A stretch of DNA of 64,000 nt from an uncultured Gammaproteobacteria bacterium (GTDB lineage Bacteria; Patescibacteriota; Microgenomatia; UBA8517), in assembly GCA_964583685.1 (NCBI GenBank), contig CAZOVJ010000002.1, positions 213,862 to 277,861 of the forward strand, given 5' to 3'. Positions 32,039-54,284 of this stretch are shown piece after piece. Position 1 is the stretch's first letter. Every line of letters begins with the position of its first letter. The notes beneath the pieces were generated by a model, which did not search any database, was not told where the DNA came from, and was given only the letters and a program-made list of their open reading frames with translations. The position numbers and the translations under genes were made by a program.

Positions 32039-32470
32039 ATGCGAGTGATTAACAAAAGAGCAAGATTTAATTACCGGCTAATAGATGAACTTGAAACAGG
32101 AATAAGTCTTACAGGTAAAGAAGTGAAGGCAGTGAGAGCTGGCCTTGTTGACTTAACCAGTGCTCATGGAAAAATTTTGCGAGGAGAAGTTTATCTAGTG
32201 GGAGCGGTTATCAATGCTTCTCGGGCCCAAAACTACGACCCTTCGCGTAGTAGAAAACTACTTTTGCATAAAAAGGAGATTGTTTCCCTTCAGAACAAAA
32301 TGAAACAAAAAAAGTTGACTCTTGTGCCTACTGCAATGTATACTAGGGGACGTTTAATTAAGTTGAAGCTAGCTTTAGCTAAAATTAAGCGCAAATTCGA
32401 GAAAAAAGAGACAATTAAGAAACGAGATATAGAGAGAGAAATCGAAAAAGAATTAAGGGGACGTCAATAG
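32039..32470 (+). CDS. smpB: SsrA-binding protein SmpB
   Basis: MRVINKRARFNYRLIDELETGISLTGKEVKAVRAG...: canonical SmpB N-terminus. Confidence 0.9.
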   Translation: MRVINKRARFNYRLIDELETGISLTGKEVKAVRAGLVDLTSAHGKILRGEVYLVGAVINASRAQNYDPSRSRKLLLHKKEIVSLQNKMKQKKLTLVPTAMYTRGRLIKLKLALAKIKRKFEKKETIKKRDIEREIEKELRGRQ

Positions 32471-32816
32471 GTTTCGACGAAAAGCACCTTTAAAAGATTG
32501 CAAGCAGACTTTGGTCTAGAGTCTTAAAAAAAGGCCGAACAAAACAAGCGTCAACGAAAAAAGTTACGCTCCCCAATACGCAGTAGCTTAATTGGGGTGT
32601 TCACCGACTTGTTTCTCGACCGAGCCGGATGGGCATAAACCAGTCGAGATGTAAGATATAGCATGACTTAAGGCCATATCTTAAGATTTTTAAGTCTTAC
32701 TCTGAATTATCCGGCCAACTGGTAAAATTTAGAGGAAATACTAAAGTTGGCAAAGCTTGTAGAGATTTTTTAAAGAACTTATTCGGACGAGGGTTCGATT
32801 CCCTCCGTCTCCACCA
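32457..32816 (+). ncRNA. ssrA: tmRNA (SsrA)
   Basis: 5' GGGGACGUCAAUAGGUUUCGACG pairs with 3' ...GGUUCGAUUCCCUCCGUCUCCACCA (tRNA-like T-arm + acceptor, CCA encoded); internal tag frame ...VNEKSYAPQYAVA-stop; follows smpB. Confidence 0.8.
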
Positions 32817-32831
32817 AGAAAAATTATGCCA

Positions 32832-32855
32832 TCCCGCACATTAGTGCGGGTTTTT
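32832..32855 (+). terminator. Rho-independent terminator after ssrA
   Basis: CCCGCAC-atta-GTGCGGG followed by TTTTT. Confidence 0.6.
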
Positions 32856-32857
32856 GT

Positions 32858-33547
32858 GTGCACAATGAGTTTATGGGGTTCTTGGATTTTATTTTTCCAC
32901 GAACTTGTTTAGGCTGTGGTGCTTCTGGCAAATATCTTTGTAGTCAGTGTATCCAAAAAATCAAGAAAGCTCCGGAAATCTGTTCCTACTGTGGTAGTTA
33001 TTCATTTCGGGGTGCGACCCATCAATCTTGTAAAAGACCTTTGGGTTTGGATGGAGCTTTTTCTGCTTGGAATTATGAAGGAGTGATGAGAAAGGCAATT
33101 TTGGCTCTCAAATATAAATTTGCTTCGGAAATTGCCAAGGAGCTGGCAGCAATACTTGCAAATGAGCTCAGGAAAAGGCCGCTTCAATTGACTAAAGCGG
33201 TGCTTGTTCCTATTCCTCTACATAGACAAAGAAAACTTTGGCGAGGCTTTAATCAAACAGAGGAAATCGGAAAACTGGTTGCCGAGAAAATGGGCTGGAA
33301 GTTTGAGAAAAATCTTATCTTAAGACAGGTTGATACCCTACCTCAGGTTCAATTAAAGAAAGAGAAGCGCAAATCGAATGTCCGCGGCGCCTTTTCTCTA
33401 AACCCCACTCACCAATCACCGGTTCTTTTTGATGATGTTTGGACAACTGGTCCAACCCTTAAAGAAGCGGCCAAAGTTTTAAAAACCTGTTTTCGCAGGC
33501 TGGAAAAAGGAACTGGAAAGGTTTGGAGCCTGACTCTGACTCGTTAA
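32858..33547 (+). CDS. comFC: ComF-family protein (double zinc ribbon + phosphoribosyltransferase domain)
   Basis: CLGCG...CSQC / CSYCG...C zinc ribbons, PRTase motif VLFDDVWTTGPTL. Confidence 0.65.
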   Translation: MHNEFMGFLDFIFPRTCLGCGASGKYLCSQCIQKIKKAPEICSYCGSYSFRGATHQSCKRPLGLDGAFSAWNYEGVMRKAILALKYKFASEIAKELAAILANELRKRPLQLTKAVLVPIPLHRQRKLWRGFNQTEEIGKLVAEKMGWKFEKNLILRQVDTLPQVQLKKEKRKSNVRGAFSLNPTHQSPVLFDDVWTTGPTLKEAAKVLKTCFRRLEKGTGKVWSLTLTR

Positions 33548-33548
33548 A

Positions 33549-33640
33549 GGCGGTGAGGGTGGGATTCGAACCCACGGTCCCGATATAATCGGAACACTCG
33601 CTTTCCAGGCGAGCCCGTTCGACCACTCCGGCACCTCACC
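33549..33640 (-). tRNA. tRNA-Ser (anticodon GGA)
   Basis: rc = GGTGAGGTGCCGGAGTGGTCGAACGGGCTCGCCTGGAAAGCGAG + long variable arm + GGTTCGAATCC T-loop; loop CUGGAAA. Confidence 0.8.
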
Positions 33641-33656
33641 ACATTTCGACAAATTC

Positions 33657-34094
33657 TTAAAACGGTCGAGGCTTTTGTCTTTCTAATTTTTTTAAAACCT
33701 CTTTAGCCTGCCTGAGCATTAATTTGTCTCGCTTATTGGCCAATTTTCTTACAGCTTTGCCATATTCTAGCCAGGCACAGTCAGTATATCCAATAACTTC
33801 ACTACCACTTATTTGGACTACTAGATAATAAAGACATCTTTGTGGTACGACTTTGTTGTTAATTTTTACAACCCCACCCGACCGTCCCGCTTCTTCTAAA
33901 ACTTTTACTTCCATTGCTCCCTGTTCGCCCATTGTCCGTATTGCGGTCCGCGCCGTTGACTCTGTTTTTCTTGCTGCTGCTTTGGGAATTTCCCATTTGC
34001 TGTCTTGGTTTTGTTTTACGATGAACCAAACAGTTTTACCCCTGAGTTTTTTGAAAACTATTGGGGCTGATAGTAAGAGTTGTTGGTTTCTCAT
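33657..34094 (-). CDS. Hypothetical protein (start trimmed to MRNQQ... to avoid tRNA overlap)
   Basis: ORF-track version (to 34145) overlaps tRNA-Ser(UGA); internal Met at 34094 abuts the tRNA. Confidence 0.35.
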   Translation of the reverse strand: MRNQQLLLSAPIVFKKLRGKTVWFIVKQNQDSKWEIPKAAARKTESTARTAIRTMGEQGAMEVKVLEEAGRSGGVVKINNKVVPQRCLYYLVVQISGSEVIGYTDCAWLEYGKAVRKLANKRDKLMLRQAKEVLKKLERQKPRPF

Positions 34095-34104
34095 AAGATT
34101 AAAG

Positions 34105-34188
34105 CGGAGGGTACAGGATTCGAACCTGTGCGGGTTTTCACCCACTGGTTTTCAAGACCAGCGCCTTAGACCACTCGGCCAACCCTCC
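34105..34188 (-). tRNA. tRNA-Ser (anticodon UGA)
   Basis: rc = GGAGGGTTGGCCGAGTGGTCTAAGGCGCTGGTCTTGAAAACCAG + long variable arm + GGTTCGAATCC. Confidence 0.8.
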
Positions 34189-34220
34189 AAGGTTCTGGTT
34201 TTTCCACAATAATTATTTTG

Positions 34221-34308
34221 CGGTGGGGACAGGATTCGAACCTGCGCGAGGGGATTAACCCTCAATGGTTTAGCAAACCATCGCCTTAGACCACTCGGCC
34301 ACCCCACC
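34221..34308 (-). tRNA. tRNA-Ser (anticodon GCU)
   Basis: rc = GGTGGGGTGGCCGAGTGGTCTAAGGCGATGGTTTGCTAAACCAT + long variable arm + GGTTCGAATCC. Confidence 0.8.
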
Positions 34309-34377
34309 AAACAGACTCAATTATAACAGATTTTAGGTTTGGAATGAAGCTTAAAATAAAGTATAATAAAATCCAAG

Positions 34378-34893
34378 ATGGCTGCCAAAGAAGAGACATT
34401 ACCTGTTGCCATCAGAAAAGAGACGGAAAGAGTCTTAATTAGTTGGATGGCACCAGCGAGGCCCTTTAAAAGAAGAAGCCGGGATTTCTATATCACCATA
34501 GTGGCTATTGCCATAGTTTTCGGACTAGTCCTTTTTTTTGTTGAAGGCTGGCTTCCTGTTATTCTTGTTATTTCTCTGGTTTTCCTGGTTTATGTTATGT
34601 CAAGCGTTGAGCCAGAGAGCATAGAGTATAAGATAAGCAATCAGGGAATAAAGGTTGCCGGTAAAAGGACTGATTGGCGAGCGATGACCAGGTTTTGGTT
34701 TAGTAAACGGTTGGGAGTAGACCTTTTGGTGATTGAAACTTGGAAACTGCCGGGAAGGTTAGAGGTTGTTATCAATCCGGAGTTAAAAAAGGAAATTACC
34801 AAGGAGATTTCCAGGTTTTTGCCCCATGAAGAGGTGCCGCCTTCTTTCCTAGATAAAGCCAGTAATTGGTTGAGCAAGAAATTGCCTTCTTAA
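34378..34893 (+). CDS. Small membrane protein (two TM), unknown function
   Basis: 171 aa; TM pair FYITIVAIAIVFGLVLFFVEGWLPVILVISLVFLVYV. Confidence 0.45.
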   Translation: MAAKEETLPVAIRKETERVLISWMAPARPFKRRSRDFYITIVAIAIVFGLVLFFVEGWLPVILVISLVFLVYVMSSVEPESIEYKISNQGIKVAGKRTDWRAMTRFWFSKRLGVDLLVIETWKLPGRLEVVINPELKKEITKEISRFLPHEEVPPSFLDKASNWLSKKLPS

Positions 34894-34965
34894 GCCCTTG
34901 TAGCTTAACGGATAGAGCATTGGTTTGCGGAACCGAAGATACCAGTTCGATTCTGGTCAAGGGCA
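34894..34965 (+). tRNA. tRNA with anticodon GCG (Arg by anticodon; unusual isoacceptor)
   Basis: GCCCTTGTAGCTTAACGGATAGAGCATTGGTTTGCGGAACCGAAGATACCAGTTCGATTCTGGTCAAGGGCA; cloverleaf folds, anticodon loop UUGCGGA. Confidence 0.55.
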
Positions 34966-34969
34966 CATT

Positions 34970-35057
34970 GGTGGGGTGCCGGAGTGGCCAAACGGGATGG
35001 TTTCGAAAACCATAGGGAGTAATCCCTTCGCGAGTTCGAATCTCGCCCCCACCGCCA
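34970..35057 (+). tRNA. tRNA-Ser (anticodon CGA), CCA encoded
   Basis: GGTGGGGTGCCGGAGTGGCCAAACGGGATGGTTTCGAAAACCAT + long variable arm + GAGTTCGAATCTC...ACCGCCA. Confidence 0.8.
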
Positions 35058-38114: not shown

Positions 38115-38186
38115 TCCCCGGTAGCTCAATGGTAGAGCGCTCGCCTGTTAAGCGAAGGGTTGCTGGTTCGAGTCCAGCCCGGGGAG
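38115..38186 (+). tRNA. tRNA-Asn (anticodon GUU)
   Basis: TCCCCGGTAGCTCAATGGTAGAGCGCTCGCCTGTTAAGCGAAGGGTTGCTGGTTCGAGTCCAGCCCGGGGAG; anticodon loop CUGUUAA. Confidence 0.8.
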
Positions 38187-39785
38187 CATAAGTGTACGAT
38201 TCTGACATTTAACGAGGATATCAAAGGGTTTTTTGTAGGTAAAATCAATCTTTTTGTCCTTCAAGGTTAGGTTCTGAAATACAAAATTTAATAGCTCACT
38301 CTTTCGTTTATCACTTGCCTTGTTAAATAATTCTTTTGCTTTTTGAGACAGTTCTAAGTAGAGAATGGCTCTCTTAAACCATTTTTTGTCTAGGTTTTTG
38401 TATTTCTCGATTTCCTGTTCAAGTTCTTGCTTTTCCTGCTCATATTGGTCGTTTTTCTTGTCAAATTGGGCTTTTTTTATCTTTTGGTCTATATAGAGTT
38501 CTAGTAATCTATCTTGTTTAGGTTGTAGTTTTCCAAGGTGTCTGTTTAGGTTCTGTAATGATACATCCCTAATTTTTTGCTCCTCTTTAAGACCCTCTTT
38601 TAGCTCCTCTCGAAAAATTGGGCTAAGTTCTTCAGGCAAGCTGACCTTTTCTATTGCTTCTTCAAACACTCTCTGGAGATATTCGTGCTTAACCGAGCCC
38701 TGAGAACAACCGAAGCGATTTCTGGTGCAGTGATAGTAGATGTAGTGTAGATACAAAGGCTTTTTCATCTTTTTGATGGGTGTTTTACACTTAGGGCAAC
38801 ACCTTTTGTTCTTGTAGTGGAATTTGTTTTTACACTTGGGACAAATTAACTGAAACTTTTGCTCGGCAGTAATTCCTGCTCCACACTCACCGCATCGCAT
38901 TTCCTCAAGCTTGAAAGGGAAATCATAGATTCGTTGAAAACGGTGACCTTTGGCTTTTAGCCTTTCTTGGACTCTTTGCCAAAGCTCGTAATCAATAATT
39001 GGTTTGTGGCTGCCTTTATGTAATTTTCCTTTCCACCTAAACCAACAGTAATAGAAGGGATTTGTTAGTATATTATGCCAAGCTCCTTTACCGACCTTGC
39101 CCCCTGGCTTTCTTTTAGTAGCCCTACTCCTAAAACCATTTTTGTAAGCCCATTCCACAATCCCGTCAATAGAAAGTCTACCCACGTCATAGAGCTCAAA
39201 TGCCTTTTGGATTATCGGGGCCTTCGAGAAATCAACCTCTCTTTTATCTGATTCTTTGCCTGTTAGGGCAAAATACTCTTTCCTGGTTAAGTAACCAAGT
39301 GGGGGGACACTTGGAAAAAAACCTTGCTTAACCCTTTCCGCTTGCCCTTTTTTAGTTTCCTCACTGAGGTTGTCTATTTGCCATTTGGCCATAAGAGCTT
39401 GTAGGCCAAACATAGCGTGGCCTTGAGAATTGTTTTCAAACCTACCGGTGACACAGACTAAATCCAATTCTTTAACTCTCCATACATCGCATATTTGTCC
39501 TAAATCGTGCCAGTTTCTTGTTAGCCTGTCTGGCTTATGAGACAAAAGGCCGTACTGGCCAGTTGGGACTTGTCCTAGTATGCCCATCACTTCATTAAAC
39601 AATGGCCTACCTGAGTCTTTAGCTGATTTCTTTTCAGAAAACCACTTGATAATTTTCAATCCTTCTTTTTTAGCAAAATCTTCAATTTGATGTTTTTGGG
39701 CAGCAAGACTTAATTCTTGCTTGTCCTCGGTATCGGTTGACTTTCTGATATAAGCAAGATATTTTTTGTTGTTCATATTTGTCAT
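38148..39785 (-). CDS. Large serine recombinase (integrase)
   Basis: N-term YIRKSTDTEDKQELSLAAQ (resolvase catalytic Ser), recombinase domain, Cys-rich zinc-ribbon region CGECG...CPKC...CPKC; last 13 codons and stop lie inside tRNA-Asn. Confidence 0.8.
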   Translation of the reverse strand: MTNMNNKKYLAYIRKSTDTEDKQELSLAAQKHQIEDFAKKEGLKIIKWFSEKKSAKDSGRPLFNEVMGILGQVPTGQYGLLSHKPDRLTRNWHDLGQICDVWRVKELDLVCVTGRFENNSQGHAMFGLQALMAKWQIDNLSEETKKGQAERVKQGFFPSVPPLGYLTRKEYFALTGKESDKREVDFSKAPIIQKAFELYDVGRLSIDGIVEWAYKNGFRSRATKRKPGGKVGKGAWHNILTNPFYYCWFRWKGKLHKGSHKPIIDYELWQRVQERLKAKGHRFQRIYDFPFKLEEMRCGECGAGITAEQKFQLICPKCKNKFHYKNKRCCPKCKTPIKKMKKPLYLHYIYYHCTRNRFGCSQGSVKHEYLQRVFEEAIEKVSLPEELSPIFREELKEGLKEEQKIRDVSLQNLNRHLGKLQPKQDRLLELYIDQKIKKAQFDKKNDQYEQEKQELEQEIEKYKNLDKKWFKRAILYLELSQKAKELFNKASDKRKSELLNFVFQNLTLKDKKIDFTYKKPFDILVKCQNRTLMLPGLDSNQQPFA

Positions 39786-39917: not shown

Positions 39918-40568
39918 CTAACATTTCTTACTTAACCTTCTCTTATTCAGCTTTCTTAGTTTCCAAACTTTCTTTTTATATTTGTCGTTTTTTATAGAAA
40001 TAGGTTTGTTCAGAAGTATCCCCTCATAATAGAATTTCTCATCCGCATTTTTCTGATAATCGCCTGAAAGCTGTTTTAGTAACCCTCGCCCTCTTTCCGT
40101 ATGCTCGTCAAGAGCTTCTGATTGAATTTTTAGTTTCCAGCCCGCCTTTCTTTTCAAATCAATATAATCGCAGGCGTAGTCAATTTCTCTGGATTTTTTA
40201 GCCCTACAAAGATAGAGGACAGCCATAGCAGGATGAAATGTTTCTATGTAATACTTTTTATTCACCCTTTCATTTAATTGGGCTAAGGCGTTAATTAGGA
40301 TTGGAGCTTGCGAGTCGGCAAGGCCAGCATCTTCAACAACAATGACGCTTAGCCTTCTCCAAAGGTAAGCAATATAGCGACCTTTAATTAGCTCCATCAT
40401 CCAAAACAAAGCCTTTTCCTCTTGGCCTCTACGAATAGCTTTTTGGAGTGAACTGACTACCTCATCCAATTTATACCCACCCGGAGTTTTGAGTTCAAAA
40501 GCAGGCTTTCTATCCTTCTTTTTTCCGTTTTTCTTTGTTTGGCTTTCTGCCTTAGTTTGGTTTTTCAT
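39918..40568 (-). CDS. Stand-alone MgsA/RarA C-terminal-domain-like protein
   Basis: LDEVVSSLQKAIRRGQEEKALFWMMEL...WRRLSVIVVEDAGLADSQAPIL... matches the MgsA_C pattern; no AAA+ domain. Confidence 0.4.
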   Translation of the reverse strand: MKNQTKAESQTKKNGKKKDRKPAFELKTPGGYKLDEVVSSLQKAIRRGQEEKALFWMMELIKGRYIAYLWRRLSVIVVEDAGLADSQAPILINALAQLNERVNKKYYIETFHPAMAVLYLCRAKKSREIDYACDYIDLKRKAGWKLKIQSEALDEHTERGRGLLKQLSGDYQKNADEKFYYEGILLNKPISIKNDKYKKKVWKLRKLNKRRLSKKC

Positions 40569-42471: not shown

Positions 42472-42903
42472 CTATTTGTAGTCTTCCACAATCATCTCGT
42501 AATTACCCAAAGAGTTAGAGTCGATATAGTATTCTCCCGAGCCATAAAAAATCGATTCATCCTTTACTGAGCCAGTTGTGTTCATAATCAGGTCTGACAT
42601 AATCTCACTATCTGGTTTTTGCAAAAAAGCTTGGCATAAATCGCCAGTACAGTTGTATTTGATTTTGAATCTATCCCCAGTAATTGTGAATGGTTCAGAT
42701 TTTTTAGCCCCATTGCCCTTGAAGGTAAAAACTGGTTGGTATTCTTTGGTGGCTTCTTTACTTTTTTGTGAGACTTCGGTTTCAGTCGTTGGACTGGTAT
42801 TTGATTGTTTTTCTCCACCACTGCCTGCCAATAAGCCAATGACTATAAAAACAGCCAATATGATACCTGCTATTTTTAGAACTTTTTTCACTTTTCTTCT
42901 CAC
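42472..42903 (-). CDS. Membrane-anchored secreted small protein
   Basis: N-terminal TM IAGIILAVFIVIGLLAG then Thr/Ser-rich linker. Confidence 0.4.
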   Translation of the reverse strand: MRRKVKKVLKIAGIILAVFIVIGLLAGSGGEKQSNTSPTTETEVSQKSKEATKEYQPVFTFKGNGAKKSEPFTITGDRFKIKYNCTGDLCQAFLQKPDSEIMSDLIMNTTGSVKDESIFYGSGEYYIDSNSLGNYEMIVEDYK

Positions 42904-42988: not shown

Positions 42989-43225
42989 TTGGTAAACAAT
43001 AGATTCACAATGCTATCCAAAAAAGCCTTCGCGGAGAAAGTTGGAAAAAATATAAAACGATTGAGAGAAAAAAGGGGGCTATCACAGGAGGAATTAGCTC
43101 ACAAAGCTGGACTTTACCGAACTTACATGGGTCACTTAGAAAACGCCAGATATTCCCCCAGTGCTTATATTTTGTATAAACTAGCTAAGATTTTGAAAAT
43201 AAAGATTTCGGAGTTTTTTTCTTAA
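42989..43225 (+). CDS. XRE-family HTH transcriptional regulator
   Basis: NIKRLREKRGLSQEELAHKAGLYRTYMGHLENARYSPSAYILYKLAKIL: classic HTH_XRE. Confidence 0.6.
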   Translation: MVNNRFTMLSKKAFAEKVGKNIKRLREKRGLSQEELAHKAGLYRTYMGHLENARYSPSAYILYKLAKILKIKISEFFS

Positions 43226-43236
43226 CGAAGTCAATT

Positions 43237-43701
43237 TTAGGATGCTTGAGTTGTTTTTTGAATCATTTCTAAATTCTTTAGTAATTGTTTGAGGATGGAT
43301 TTTTCAAAGAACTCAAAAGCTGGTTTATCTTTTGTCGTAAGCAAGTATCTTGCGGCTTTACTAGAAACTCTTAGGTGATGATATTTTGCCCTTATAGATG
43401 GAAATCTTTTAGCAATCAGGGTTTCCCTAAAGGCGTGCATGCTTTTATCTATGTCTAATGAGGCCATAGTTGACCGGTGGCGATTATAACAGTCATCAGT
43501 ATGCAATATTTCTGGGATACGGGTGAATGCAGCTTCAACGAAATGAAGAGCAGCATAAAAAGCACAAGTAATAGACCAATCTATAAAATCTGTCTTGGAA
43601 AGTTGTTTTGAGAGTTTCTTATTGTGCTCCGCTTGAGCATTATGCGTAGATAAACTTGACATTTTGGTAATCAAATGATTTTGCTGGGTGCAGATAGTCA
43701 T
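43237..43701 (-). CDS. Hypothetical protein (possible HEPN-like helical domain)
   Basis: 154 aa; ...WSITCAFYAALHFVEA...RAKYHH...; assignment weak. Confidence 0.35.
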   Translation of the reverse strand: MTICTQQNHLITKMSSLSTHNAQAEHNKKLSKQLSKTDFIDWSITCAFYAALHFVEAAFTRIPEILHTDDCYNRHRSTMASLDIDKSMHAFRETLIAKRFPSIRAKYHHLRVSSKAARYLLTTKDKPAFEFFEKSILKQLLKNLEMIQKTTQAS

Positions 43702-44323
43702 TAAATTCAGTTGACTCCTCTCTTTTTTTAACTGATAAATTTTCTTGTATTGCTCTGGTGAATATCAGTCTGTCTTCCTGGGGATTTATTAGGTTATTAC
43801 TTTCAGGATAATATGGAATATATTCAAAACTGATTAGTTTTTCTGAGAATGAGTCTTTAACAGGAAATTCTGCTTCATTAAAAATTTTGTCCATCAAATT
43901 GTAGTTATAGTGCTCAACATCTAATATGACCTTGACGGTTGTTAATTCTTCATTATGACTAATATAAATTTCTCTTATTTGTTCAAAATTTTTCAACCTG
44001 CGTGCTATTTTTAATTCTAATTGCTCTTCCGGTGTTGTTGGGTAATCTGACATAAGAGTAAAATCTTGTAAAGGCTGGTTAAAAGCTAAATAGCTTTGTG
44101 GTGGTGAGGCTGTGAAGTAAATAACTTGATTCATTTGTTGTTCACTTTGTGTCCCTAAGGAGATAAGGGCGGATTCTTCACAGGAGGCATTTATTGACTT
44201 TACTTCTATCGATGCCCCAGGAGATGCGTTTTCTTCATCAATAAACTTCCTTTGTAGTGAGGCAAGTAAGTAAGTATCATTTAATTTAGAGGTAGCTTCA
44301 AAACTGCTATTTATTGTGTTCAT
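43640..44323 (-). CDS. Hypothetical protein (227 aa)
   Basis: Overlaps downstream gene by 62 nt; AT-rich. Confidence 0.4.
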   Translation of the reverse strand: MNTINSSFEATSKLNDTYLLASLQRKFIDEENASPGASIEVKSINASCEESALISLGTQSEQQMNQVIYFTASPPQSYLAFNQPLQDFTLMSDYPTTPEEQLELKIARRLKNFEQIREIYISHNEELTTVKVILDVEHYNYNLMDKIFNEAEFPVKDSFSEKLISFEYIPYYPESNNLINPQEDRLIFTRAIQENLSVKKREESTEFNDYLHPAKSFDYQNVKFIYA

Positions 44324-44328
44324 TTTAA

Positions 44329-45030
44329 CTATAGTCCGAGACTGGCGAGAGTACTTTTTACCGATAATTCAAAGGCGTTACTAAAAAATGCCATCGCTTT
44401 TGGAAAATCAATTTTGTATTTAATTGTTTTTAATGTATTGATGTCTGATATTACTAAAAACAATCCTTTTTCTTTATTTCCTTCTTTTGAAATTAGCCTT
44501 ATCCAGTTATTTGTTTTGAAATCTCCAATTTTTTCAATAAATAATCTATGTATCTGTAGTTCGGTTGAGGCGTCTTTCGGATTACTAAGATAATTTTTCT
44601 TTAGGAGTTCTATTCCGTTGATAGATTGGCTGACTTTGTATTTTGTAACTAATCCTAGTCTATTGCTGGTCATTGAAAATCTAGTAAAGGTAATTTTGGC
44701 TAGTCTTTGGACAACCTTAAAGAAATCTTCTTTTGTTTTCTCAAGCGGCTTTTTCTCATCTGTTTCTTTATAGCTTAAATCAAGCCTATTGGCAGCGATA
44801 TTACAAGTTAGGTTTTTGTCTTTGCTAATTAAAATTATTCTTGGTATTTCTAAAGGTGCATCATCTGGTATTGGAAGGGTAGTTGGTGTTCCATTGAGTT
44901 TTGGAGATAGTCCTTTTTGTATTAAACTAGCTACACTTAACCTGTTTGATAAATCTATATTCCCGAGGAAAAAAGCAGCCTGAATGGATTGTGTAGAGAA
45001 TGGTATTTTCATAAAATCTAAATTAGACAA
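44329..45030 (-). CDS. Hypothetical protein (233 aa)
   Basis: First gene of three-gene minus-strand operon. Confidence 0.4.
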   Translation of the reverse strand: MSNLDFMKIPFSTQSIQAAFFLGNIDLSNRLSVASLIQKGLSPKLNGTPTTLPIPDDAPLEIPRIILISKDKNLTCNIAANRLDLSYKETDEKKPLEKTKEDFFKVVQRLAKITFTRFSMTSNRLGLVTKYKVSQSINGIELLKKNYLSNPKDASTELQIHRLFIEKIGDFKTNNWIRLISKEGNKEKGLFLVISDINTLKTIKYKIDFPKAMAFFSNAFELSVKSTLASLGL

Positions 45031-45189
45031 ATATATTATAACAGAAGGTAAAATTAATTTCTTTTTACACCATTAAACTAGTCCGAACTTCGTCTACGAT
45101 GGGGAGCCGAACTTTTTTGGCCTCAGATTTTACTACCCTCAGCAGGACGTTAAAACCCATGCTAGACTTGTTCAGACCTTTATAATGTT

Positions 45190-45762
45190 GTGAACAAACC
45201 AAGACCCAACAAGGCAGAGAAAAAGTTTTTGAATTTAGCATACAACAAGTTTTACGACATTTTTGATGAGATTGCCAATGACTCCTTTTGGAAGAAAAGT
45301 GATTATTACAGATTATGTAAAATTAAAGAAGCCTTTTCTTTGTATTCCGAACTTCTTAATTATCCACCAATAGGTTGGTTTATAGAGCAATTAAAGGAGA
45401 ACCGTCCCCCAATGGAGGCAGAGATAGGTGGTGAACTATTTCGTTTTGTCAGAAATGTTATGGTTCACTTTCCCTTATTTGAAGGCTGGAATGAAATTTG
45501 GATAGATAAAGATATTGTAAATTGGCACAAAAAAGGATTGTCCATTGATAGGTTTCTTAAAAAATACGATGGACATAAAGTGGTTAAATATAGAATTTGG
45601 GAAGCAGCAAAAAAGAAAATGACTTATATAAGTATAAAATTTCCTAAAAGCTACAAAAAGGGCAAGAAGGTTTACCTAAGGGATGTTATTGAAGAAAAAG
45701 ATGGAATTTGGTTTTCGGTAGTTTTTATGAAAAAAATCCTGGACCCTCAAATTGAACAATGA
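45190..45762 (+). CDS. Hypothetical protein (190 aa)
   Basis: GTG start 3 nt after a TATAAT hexamer; start uncertain. Confidence 0.4.
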   Translation: MNKPRPNKAEKKFLNLAYNKFYDIFDEIANDSFWKKSDYYRLCKIKEAFSLYSELLNYPPIGWFIEQLKENRPPMEAEIGGELFRFVRNVMVHFPLFEGWNEIWIDKDIVNWHKKGLSIDRFLKKYDGHKVVKYRIWEAAKKKMTYISIKFPKSYKKGKKVYLRDVIEEKDGIWFSVVFMKKILDPQIEQ

Positions 45763-45776
45763 TGGAAACTGGCTTC

Positions 45777-46436
45777 TTATAACAATTCAGAAGGGCGATA
45801 TTTATTCATTCCTGGGTTTGGCCATATTTCCCCAATGAATACCCGTTCACTTGAAACACTATAAAACATTACTGCCGAAAATGGATAGTTTTTAGAATTG
45901 AAACGCTTGGAAATTATTTCCCAATCCACAAAACTGACATCCTCAGGAATTATTAGCAACTTTGTGTTTGTTTTTGTGTACCGCCGAGGTATTTCCTTGT
46001 TAAGGTATTCTAAAAGAGTTTCTGTTATGTCTCCCTTTTTATGTTTTCTAAAGCGTTTTAATTGAAACGCAATACCTTTGGAAGTTTTCCTGTCCATATA
46101 TTTTATTTTTCCTGGGCTTATTACAACATCTATTGGAGTATTAGAGTCGGTATATCTTCTCAAAATCTCTCTAATTAACAACAGATTCGCCTTTCCTTTA
46201 TCTGGTATGTCTCTCGCATATTTATCTTTTAGCTTAAATCCTATTAGGGTATCGGTTTTCCACAATTTACGGTAGAAACCACTTAATAGTAAACTTATTA
46301 TTAATTCGTAGTTTTGGGAATCAGACTTTATGTTAACTTTTTTTAATAATGCCTTTAAAGTTCGTCTCTTAATAAAAAATGTCTCCACAAGACCTATTAT
46401 ATTAGATGTTGTGAAGATAAAAGGTTCTGACTTCAT
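45777..46436 (-). CDS. Hypothetical protein (219 aa)
   Basis: Convergent with previous gene; start abuts conserved 132-nt intergenic block. Confidence 0.4.
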   Translation of the reverse strand: MKSEPFIFTTSNIIGLVETFFIKRRTLKALLKKVNIKSDSQNYELIISLLLSGFYRKLWKTDTLIGFKLKDKYARDIPDKGKANLLLIREILRRYTDSNTPIDVVISPGKIKYMDRKTSKGIAFQLKRFRKHKKGDITETLLEYLNKEIPRRYTKTNTKLLIIPEDVSFVDWEIISKRFNSKNYPFSAVMFYSVSSERVFIGEIWPNPGMNKYRPSELL

Positions 46437-46616
46437 CCACGATAAGATTTCGTGCTTTATGTAGAAAGAAAATTACGCTGATAATCTGGATGAAGAATTA
46501 GAAACGGGCTTGGTACTTCTGTGTAATGCCTGATGAAATAGTTTCTGTATTTATATATATTAGGGAGCTAGCTTCAGAAAACCTATTTAGCGGGCTTTAT
46601 TTGGTAGAATAGAAGT

Positions 46617-47330: not shown

Positions 47331-47437
47331 CTAAACTAGTTCGAACTTCGTCCACGATAGAGTAACTTCAAGCTCAATTTGATGGGCTTTCTGATTTTTA
47401 ATTTTCGCTAGCGATGATGTTTTGGTAGAATTAACAT

Positions 47438-48193: not shown

Positions 48194-49291
48194 ATGCTTT
48201 CAGATATTTCTCCTCTTATTAGCAAGGTAAGCGAGGGGCAGAACCTAACAGCAGCGGAGACAGAAAGGGCTCTTGATACTGTTATTGAAGAAGACAAAGA
48301 GGGATGGTTTGCTTGGTCACTTCTTCTTGCACTCCATACCAAAGGGGAAACAGGAGATGAGTTCCTAGGATTTTGCAAGAGCTATGTAAAACGCCTTCCT
48401 AAACTTAACCCAAAAATTGACATTGATAACACCACTGACACTTCTGGGACCGGAGGAGATAAGTTAAAGACCTTCAATATTAGCACGACGGCCTCTGTGG
48501 TGCTTGCTGGAGCAGGTGTCACAGTAGCCAAACAAGCGTTTTTTGCTGTCACGGGATTCTCTGGGAGTGCTGAGATATTCGGGGCATTTGGAGTGGATGT
48601 CTTAAAAATAAGACTTCAACAAGTGGAAAAGACTCTGGAGACGATTGGGATTTGTCCATATCTTAAAGAAGTTTTAGTTGAGAAAACTGGTCTTGAGAAT
48701 CTGATGGTCACAAAAAAAGTCTCGGATATGGGGCTAAAGCTAGTTTCTCCTCTCCATATTGTTGCCAATGTAGTCGCACCAATTAAAATGAAAAGGAGAG
48801 TTTACGGTTGCACTTGGAGAAAATATTTGCCTGTTTTAGCTGAGCTTTTTCAAAAGCTGGGATACACAAAGGGAATGGTCGTTCATGGCGTGGACGGAAT
48901 CGATGAGATGTCAAATATTGGCAAGACAGAGATTGTAGAGTATACAGCAAAAAGGACAAAGGCCTACAAACTTAGCCCAGCTGACTTAGGAATTAGAAAA
49001 GCAAAATTTGAGGATATTAAAGCCATTAGCAAAGAGCGAAATGTGATTGACTTCTTACGAATCCTTTACGGGAAAGAGAAAAGTCCCAGAAGAGATATTG
49101 TTCTTGCCAACACCGCTGCTTCTTTATATGTTATGGGTAAGGTTAAAAACTTGAGTGAGGGGGTGGCGATGGCAGGAGAAGTTATAGACGAGGGGTTAGC
49201 CTTTAAGAAATTAGAACAACTAGTAAAAGCTTTAGGAGATGAAAAGCAGCTTGAGAATTGGAAGAAGAAAGCTGGTTTAGCTTCAAACTAG
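48194..49291 (+). CDS. Glycosyl transferase family 3 / anthranilate phosphoribosyltransferase-like (TrpD homolog)
   Basis: DTSGTGGDKLKTFNISTTASVVLAGAG: TrpD GTGGD...FNIST motif. Confidence 0.65.
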   Translation: MLSDISPLISKVSEGQNLTAAETERALDTVIEEDKEGWFAWSLLLALHTKGETGDEFLGFCKSYVKRLPKLNPKIDIDNTTDTSGTGGDKLKTFNISTTASVVLAGAGVTVAKQAFFAVTGFSGSAEIFGAFGVDVLKIRLQQVEKTLETIGICPYLKEVLVEKTGLENLMVTKKVSDMGLKLVSPLHIVANVVAPIKMKRRVYGCTWRKYLPVLAELFQKLGYTKGMVVHGVDGIDEMSNIGKTEIVEYTAKRTKAYKLSPADLGIRKAKFEDIKAISKERNVIDFLRILYGKEKSPRRDIVLANTAASLYVMGKVKNLSEGVAMAGEVIDEGLAFKKLEQLVKALGDEKQLENWKKKAGLASN

Positions 49292-49610
49292 TCCGAACTT
49301 CCTCAGCACCATTCACTTCGTTCAGGTACGGGGCAGGCGTCCACGATAAGACCTCGTGCTTTATGCAGGAAGAAAACTGTGTTGATATTCTGGGTGAAGA
49401 ATTAAATATGGGCATGGTACTTCTGTATAGTGCTTAATGAAATAGTTTCTGTATTTATATATATTAGGGAGCCCTGAATAAAAAGAGCCTATGTATGACT
49501 CTTTTTTATTTACTTTGCCTGTTTCCCTCCCTGTATCCAAAAATCTCAACCGATCCAAAGTCATCCGGGTTTCAAGAGGAAGATATTCTTACAAGAAATA
49601 ATCTCCAGGC

Positions 49611-54227: not shown

Positions 54228-54284
54228 AAAACTAGTCCGAACTTCCCACCAAATTAGGTTTTTTTGGTTTGGTAGAATAAAGAT

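Follow-up and report, generated by a model that had tools for sequence, protein, structure and literature searches.

Do three adjacent open reading frames (ORFs) without a significant family match, lying on one strand of an AT-rich stretch of bacterial DNA, form a functional unit, and of what kind would it be? The question is raised by a locus on contig CAZOVJ010000002.1 of an uncultured bacterium, which we analysed within a stretch of 64,000 nucleotides (nt), called here the window. The ORFs, named A, B and C, are located on the minus strand at 44329-45030, 43640-44323 and 43237-43701, respectively (maximal extents), and had been put forward from the sequence as a candidate anti-phage or addiction module (the original prediction). 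We found that A-B-C is a real, autonomous and mobile cassette, and the predicted structure of C points to a divergent member of the HEPN superfamily. HEPN ribonucleases (RNases) are central effectors in bacterial immunity and toxin-antitoxin systems; to our knowledge, the characterised ones nearly all carry the Rx4-6H motif in its canonical form, and their control is exerted by MNT enzymes, small antitoxins, RNAs or cyclic nucleotides.

Conservation and mobility of the A-B-C cassette

We found the order A-B-C at some 30 independent loci, which belong to at least seven phyla and have different neighbours each time; represented among them are Chloroflexota, Desulfobacterota, Bacillota, Aminicenantes, Aerophobetes and WOR-3. 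Six A relatives lay on usable contigs, and in each case the two following genes proved to be homologous to B and C, in this order, at identities down to about 30%. A profile of C retrieved 52 loci in species-representative genomes, distributed over more than ten phyla, with all three genes present in 9-11 of them and a B-family gene abutting C upstream in 37 of 51. Among 120 metagenome loci collected with a degenerate DNA pattern for the A motif, 17 further A-B-C loci were detected. The co-occurrence of the triplet elsewhere, a check named beforehand in the original prediction, was thus observed, and no mundane metabolic family was matched.

The flanks of the cassette vary from locus to locus and comprise rRNA-dimethylase and MazG genes, a Fic-MerR gene with dnaA, PIN/PhdYeFM genes or a DNA methyltransferase gene. 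Because the same order recurs amid wholly different flanks, we conclude that A-B-C moves between bacterial phyla as a unit. In Chloroflexota, on contigs of metagenome-assembled genomes (L007-L009), the cassette (L007, 8001-9830) is located between the genes of an HGD-D dehydratase and of a BcrAD/BadFG activator, apparently splitting one operon, and a type ISP restriction-modification gene is found 2 kb away. Among the neighbours of a set of 17 A-B-C loci, restriction-modification, integrase, M78 plus HTH, and helicase genes were each seen at two loci; restriction-modification and mobile-element genes are modestly enriched near the cassette, no more, and a strong defence neighbourhood was not seen.

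The same conservation bears on the possibility that the ORFs are chance frames in AT-rich DNA or functionless remnants. A low guanine plus cytosine (GC) content favours long spurious ORFs on some strands and the three proteins have no family matches, but homologues 25-60% identical are found in the same order on many unrelated contigs at the approximately 30 loci, two of the proteins gave confident structural models, and invariant motifs are retained. This explanation is refuted, and we give it practically no credence.

Two other loci were recorded. In a WOR-3 metagenome-assembled genome (L033, 3643-5384), A is broken into three frame pieces and C into two, which corresponds either to a decaying copy or to assembly errors. 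An IMG/VR contig (L075, 5546-9364) carries a C-family gene (132 amino acids, aa) whose upstream partner encodes 151 aa; the ORFs that follow directly downstream resemble, by reading of their translations, the small and large terminase subunits; the C-family gene is there in a typical moron position.

Predicted fold and conserved residues of protein C

The AlphaFold2 (AF2) model of C, obtained from an alignment of 120 sequences, is all-helical with a predicted local distance difference test (pLDDT) value of 91.7. In a Foldseek search of the PDB, the ten best matches of this model were all HEPN structures, with template modelling (TM) scores of 0.56-0.78 and probabilities of 0.96-1.00, the best one being 2hsb (AF0298). 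The HEPN entries matched were 2hsb, 1wol, 1ufb, 3o10, 2q00, 1o3u, 6m6u and 4nqf, and the proteins behind these fold matches are AF0298, ST0689, TT1696, sacsin, the SSO PaREP-type protein 2q00, TM0613, HepT and 4nqf. Weak, sub-threshold matches to PF05168 were obtained for 22 of the 120 C-family members (best E value 1e-4), these being the only matches from family-wide scans of 115-120 members, and one member carries the JGI name 'UPF0332'. The HEPN-like helical core that the original prediction had suspected in the last protein is thus borne out by the fold search. A profile search brought the family to at least 292 members, counted as cluster representatives.

The invariant or near-invariant residues of C, numbered from Met14 of the longer ORF, are H7, Q10, H13, N14, D28, W29, Y36, H40, E43, H54, H76, R79, S101, A104, R105 and Y106. 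In the model, the near-invariant R105 and Y106 close the helix 88-106, and the near-invariant E43 falls in the helix 27-46, with no Lys or Arg at position +4 (HEPN proteins often show Ex3[KR]). The residues H54, H76 and R79 are located in the insert between helices 2 and 3. In HEPN proteins the catalytic motif lies where helix 3 ends, and a conserved acidic residue is found in helix 2; the AF0298-like HEPN-T proteins and AbiV are devoid of the motif His and show instead a strongly conserved alternative His provided by the helix-2/3 insert (Anantharaman et al. 2013, PMC3710099). AbiV has been reported as an active, rRNA-cleaving RNase (bioRxiv 10.1101/2024.05.05.592566). At the fold level, C is therefore best described as a predicted divergent HEPN protein nearest to the HEPN-T clade, with a candidate site, formed by R105 and an insert His (H54 or H76), that is compatible with the AF0298/AbiV variant arrangement.

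Some C proteins are longer, about 210-230 aa, owing to a C-terminal extension of about 75 aa (L013, 3403-4077; L017, 4998-5651; about 25 of the 120 members).

Proteins A and B

Searches of Pfam, NCBIfam, PHROGs and PADLOC with A, B and C of the window gave nothing significant, and PDB sequence searches with single sequences and with profiles of the three proteins found nothing. For A, Pfam, NCBIfam and PADLOC gave no match and PHROGs gave weak matches of unknown function; 16 relatives, at 94-27% identity, were recovered among 5.8 billion clusters. The AF2 model of A (pLDDT 91.2, predicted TM score 0.88) consists of two beta-alpha-beta3-alpha repeats, and no internal duplication was detectable in the sequence. 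Invariant motifs of the family are LPIPxDAPxEIPR, NxWxR and DINT, and the invariant polar set comprises E61, R64, R82, R124, H161, N174, W176, R178, D196 and N198. Of these, R82, R124, H161, N174-x-W176-x-R178 and D196-x-N198 are carried by strands, and the other invariant polar residues belong to the loop LPIPxDAPxEIPR. The i/i+2/i+4 spacing implies that the strand residues line one conserved face of the sheet, which in the model may serve as a ligand-binding surface, with nucleic acid probably as the ligand.

The named Foldseek matches of A are pseudo-dimeric TBP-like proteins, namely TBP, Rep_trans initiators, a giant-virus TFIID, poxvirus VETF-L and an inovirus Rep. With these proteins the TM scores reach no more than 0.26-0.39 (0.29-0.39 in the PDB), the top match overall being an unnamed viral protein (0.55-0.62), and given these low scores we hold the term TBP-like for A as tentative. 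The two repeats of A may tentatively be viewed as a TBP-like saddle.

For B, just 37 relatives were detectable among 1.84 billion representatives. Every one of them aligns over residues 95-195, which delimits a conserved C-terminal domain of about 100 aa preceded by a variable N-terminal half; the invariant residues are I119, Y120, Y139, L143, E152, F166, Y168 and P170. No Pfam, NCBIfam, PADLOC or PDB sequence match was obtained for B.

Exchange of partners among the three genes

The pair B-C forms a conserved core in front of which three kinds of first gene were found: A, a family of about 82 aa, or a DUF6941 protein. The approximately 82-aa family, which has no Pfam match and the consensus ...WN.Y.L.DGT.LK.K.V...V.R......NGDP.Y..., is the first gene in 13 genome loci that lack A, mostly from Acidobacteriota (L030, L032, L035, L042, L043, L045, L046, L053, L055, L062, L063, L065 and L066). 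The DUF6941 protein takes this place in three B-C loci lacking A (L050 and L051 among them). The length of B follows its partner: in loci with A it measures 190-250 aa, as against 120-170 aa next to the 82-aa gene, which suggests that the N-terminal half of B relates to A.

A, for its part, is also found with other partners. An A-family ORF (motif PxPxDAPxEIPR) is present in 106 of the 120 motif-matched metagenome loci (L080-L199), and B-C follow A in just 15 of the 60 with enough downstream sequence. The alternative partners are a family of about 215-270 aa with the motif NWDSYGA...PFVAP..DGGI..EW (32 loci), a small protein of about 110 aa ending in LFG..R..T.EE...G.N.FDL (16 loci) and a coiled-coil transmembrane protein (5 loci, plus a viral contig, L071, 5977-7174). 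A is thus a larger superfamily of first genes, with at least three partner families besides B-C. Two-way mix-and-match of this kind, with HEPN and transmembrane proteins as alternative partners, is typical of conflict systems.

The same distribution could be read with the opposite polarity, with A as the enzyme or toxin, and with B-C and the further downstream families as alternative regulators or immunity modules. The wide occurrence of A, its dense invariant polar patch and the high variability of its downstream partners, as often seen for immunity or antitoxin genes, speak for such an arrangement. We nevertheless consider it quite improbable. A belongs to no toxin or enzyme family that can be recognised, and its fold matches bind nucleic acids and are not enzymes; HEPN proteins, like coiled-coil transmembrane proteins, classically act as effectors and not as immunity proteins; and B-C is also found in the absence of A, preceded by other first genes and in a phage.

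Comparison with known HEPN systems

C resembles the HEPN-T protein AF0298 (2hsb) and AbiV in its all-helical structure, in the basic residue that ends helix 3 without a His, in the insert His and in the acidic residue of helix 2. Unlike AbiV, neither C nor its family gave a match to PF18728 or to the PADLOC AbiV models, and C is accompanied by the proteins A and B, whereas the partner is an MNT nucleotidyltransferase in HEPN-MNT systems and an RNA antitoxin (abiV2) in AbiV.

With the type VII toxin-antitoxin pair HepT/MntA, the cassette shares a small HEPN gene immediately downstream of, and coupled to, a partner gene, and a sporadic occurrence as mobile cassettes. HepT is described as modified by its partner MntA. 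The target of this modification is a Tyr inside the motif of HepT, and C likewise shows an invariant Tyr (Y106) beside its motif Arg. The differences are that B has no GSx(n)DxD motif and no NTP_transf_2 or MNT similarity, that a third gene, A, is present, and that the Rx4-6H motif is incomplete. We examined B as a possible, even inactivated, MNT: the GSx(n)DxD nucleotidyltransferase signature was not found in the alignment of 48 B sequences, no match to NTP_transf_2 was obtained, and a comparison by hhalign with one MNT gave a probability of 0.2%, so that this assignment is not supported by sequence.

The closest functional analogy, and an analogy only, is with RnlA-RnlB and LsoA-LsoB, whose inventory is similar, with a pair of TBP-like modules, one HEPN domain and a small neutraliser of alpha/beta type. 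RnlA is organised as TBP1-TBP2-HEPN with a small alpha/beta antitoxin, and its TBP1 domain is needed for RNA binding (PMC8266594). In the cassette these parts would correspond to separate genes in the order A-B-C, and RnlA has the canonical Rx4-6H motif. A homology was tried and rejected at the sequence level: hhalign comparisons of A and C with RnlA, and of B with RnlB, gave probabilities of at most 0.1%, and no PADLOC match was obtained. The tie is kept as an analogy because there is no sequence similarity and RnlA is absent from the top fold matches of A.

A bacterial HEPN-T family, Cpin_6617, is described in Anantharaman et al. (2013, PMC3710099) as devoid of Rx4-6H, as occurring in both Bacteroidetes and Nitrospirae, and as being fused in some cases to 'a dyad of ferredoxin domains'. 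The C family is also found in Bacteroidota and Nitrospirota, and A has two alpha/beta repeats; going by this description, the two families might be the same, which we give as a lead only. Judged by the defining features of HEPN-MNT, RnlAB and AbiV as they can be read in the sequences, the cassette is none of these systems.

Proposed function of the cassette

Taken as a whole, the data are best accommodated by a mobile three-component toxin-antitoxin or abortive-infection module built around a HEPN-fold effector, a model in which we have about even confidence. Indirect pointers to a module of this kind are the translational coupling, the mobility with its changing contexts, and the broken WOR-3 copy. 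C would act as a HEPN dimer that cleaves RNA, with a variant active site composed of Arg105, where core helix 3 ends, Glu43 of helix 2, and H54 or H76 from the helix-2/3 insert. B would be its translationally coupled cognate neutraliser or adaptor, the longer N-terminal half of B docking A. A would bind nucleic acid via its conserved Arg/Trp/Asn/His/Asp sheet surface, and would be either the sensor of a trigger or a subunit that recruits the substrate, a role parallel in function to that of the TBP1-TBP2 domains of RnlA/LsoA. RNA cleavage, toxicity, the neutralising action of B, the binding of nucleic acid by A and any protection against phage are accordingly to be read as predicted properties of the module.

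Several observations weigh against this model. The Foldseek E values of C are no better than 0.015-0.32, the Pfam scan of the window C gave nothing at E ≤ 0.1, and no member of its family attains the HEPN gathering score. The canonical Rx4-6H motif is absent from C, R105 being followed by YL(L/S)xxx with no His after it. The TM scores of A for its named matches are low, as given above, and RnlA and LsoA are not among its top 50 PDB fold matches. B appears as neither an MNT nor an RnlB homologue in the hhalign comparisons. PADLOC-DB v2.0.0, to which the original prediction had looked for a defence assignment, contains no model that covers A, B or C as a family: none fits A or B of the window, C gave one chance-level match (HEase, E 0.0026), and 115 members of the three families gave single chance-level matches, the best being PDC-M11A (3e-5, one member). 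Finally, many neighbours of the cassette are ordinary metabolic genes, and only 4-5 loci each were obtained from 2.9 million viral contigs.

Part of these data would also be explained if C were a non-catalytic HEPN protein, that is a nucleotide- or RNA-binding domain or a scaffold; the cassette would then be a complex of mobile elements without toxicity, either regulatory or concerned with the handling of nucleic acids, and might serve for instance to maintain the element, to control replication or to protect RNA. Such a role would agree with the missing canonical motif and with the many housekeeping neighbours; HEPN domains without the motif can be binding domains, as in nucleotidyltransferase-fused HEPN and in human sacsin (PMC3710099), and the sacsin HEPN domain is among the best structural matches of C. 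A large polar set, H7, H13, H40, E43, H54, H76, R79, R105 and Y106, is however invariant across more than 100 divergent members and looks like an active site, the AF0298-type and AbiV variants have been proposed or reported to be active, and the sporadic distribution over phyla, the mobility, the exchange of partners with a transmembrane protein and the decayed copy are typical of conflict systems. We therefore regard a non-catalytic C as unlikely, and retain the model with C as the predicted RNase.

Gene models and genomic context in the window

The coordinates of the three genes and of the surrounding features are collected in Table 1. For A, the start at ATG 45012 (Met7 of the maximal ORF) is favoured by the alignment of homologues and by gene calls made independently on contigs of identical sequence in other samples. 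For C, the conserved part begins at Met14 (start 43662), and a 141-aa protein with 100% identity exists; since the longer start, at 43701, has a Shine-Dalgarno-like motif, GAGAGGAG, 13 nt upstream, the start of C is ambiguous and the longer one is possible. A and B are separated by a gap of 5 nt. Of the three overlapping genes of 233, 227 and 154 aa initially described, the strand, the coordinates and the maximal lengths thus stand, with the overlap confined to the B/C pair, and with A (227 aa) and C (141 aa) both probably shorter. At 17 loci where it could be measured, the B stop overlaps the C start in nine and lies at most 12 nt from it in the remaining eight; the overlap implies translational coupling.

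Table 1 Positions of the cassette genes and of neighbouring features in the window.
Feature	Position	Strand	Description
Gene A	44329..45012	-	227 aa from ATG 45012; maximal ORF from TTG 45030, 233 aa
Gene B	43640..44323	-	227 aa
Gene C	43237..43662	-	141 aa from Met14; maximal ORF from 43701, 154 aa
B/C overlap	43640..43662	-	B stop over C start; 23 or 62 nt, depending on whether C starts at 43662 or 43701
Operon upstream region	45013..45060	-	TATAAT hexamer at 45040-45035, 22 nt upstream of ATG 45012
XRE-family HTH gene	42989-43225	+	78 aa; PF01381, E 4.7e-15; convergent, 11 nt from C stop
Repeated intergenic module, first copy	45061..45100	+	core AAACTAGTYCGAACTTCSTC
tRNA-Asn	38115-38187		integration site
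Large serine recombinase	38148-39785		Resolvase and Recombinase domains

The GC content of the triplet is 33.3%, compared with 41.4% for the whole window, which places it in the lowest 1.6% among windows of the same size, and the absolute minimum window begins at 43571. The triplet is thus indeed among the poorest in GC; the value of 18% quoted at first for parts of it was overstated, the poorest 100-nt window having 24% GC. The TATAAT hexamer upstream of A is a putative promoter element, inferred from its sequence; a consensus-based scan for promoters and terminators gave nothing beyond shuffled expectation.

The island context of the original prediction was recovered, with a tRNA-Asn gene and a large serine recombinase gene: the GC content is depressed over the 38-46.5 kb stretch, and A-B-C lies inside a small element beside tRNA-Asn. 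A direct repeat of the tRNA-Asn 3' end, sought as a limit of the island, was not found, and the right end is unmarked. The convergent XRE regulator and the first copy of the repeated module as right-hand boundary were likewise found as described. The XRE gene was considered as a member of the cassette and rejected, HTH_3 neighbours being present in just 2 of 17 A-B-C loci and the gene not conserved next to the cassette. It is, with the repeated module, part of the local context outside the conserved cassette.

The 20-nt core of the module, AAACTAGTYCGAACTTCSTC, is present on the plus strand in four copies, with 0 expected, at 45075-45094, 47333-47352, 49285-49304 and 54229-54248. A 133-nt repeat (86% identity) was seen at 46436-46568 and 49340-49472, directly after the core at 49.3 kb. 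Between 45.1 and 46.5 kb, the core and the 133-nt repeat are about 1.3 kb apart with two unassigned ORFs between them (45190-45762, plus strand, and 45777-46436, minus strand), which look as if they had been inserted into a copy of the repeat module. A scan of 42-50.5 kb against Rfam found nothing relevant, neither for the repeats nor for an RNA antitoxin.

Other features were noted in the same region. The minus-strand ORF 39918-40568 (216 aa) consists of an MgsA/RarA C-terminal-like domain alone (PF12002, E 1.3e-10; phrog_33349, E 4.9e-19), and that at 42472-42903 (minus strand, 143 aa) gave only weak PHROG matches, over its N-terminal 55 residues or so, to superinfection-exclusion (Sie-like) families. 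A tmRNA gene followed by four tRNA-Ser and one tRNA-Arg occupies 32457-35057, upstream of rpoD and of the tRNA-Asn site.

Significance

A broader interpretation, which we put forward tentatively and with some doubt, is that A-B-C represents an undescribed, widespread and modular class of immune or toxin systems, composed of a TBP-like sensor A, an adaptor or neutraliser B and a non-canonical HEPN RNase C, comparable to an RnlA-like enzyme split into exchangeable subunits and present mainly in uncultivated phyla. The cassette itself would contribute a HEPN family of considerable size, with at least 292 cluster representatives and a variant active site, as well as two partner families, A and B, for which no family model exists. 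It would also show clearly how first-gene modules and effector pairs are mixed and matched, and these additions would offer a testable way into the question of how such systems sense and how they are restrained. The A superfamily is moreover brought to notice as a module that recurs with four or more alternative partners. The carriers are mostly uncultivated bacteria (Chloroflexota, Acidobacteriota and candidate phyla), whose defence repertoires are poorly annotated.

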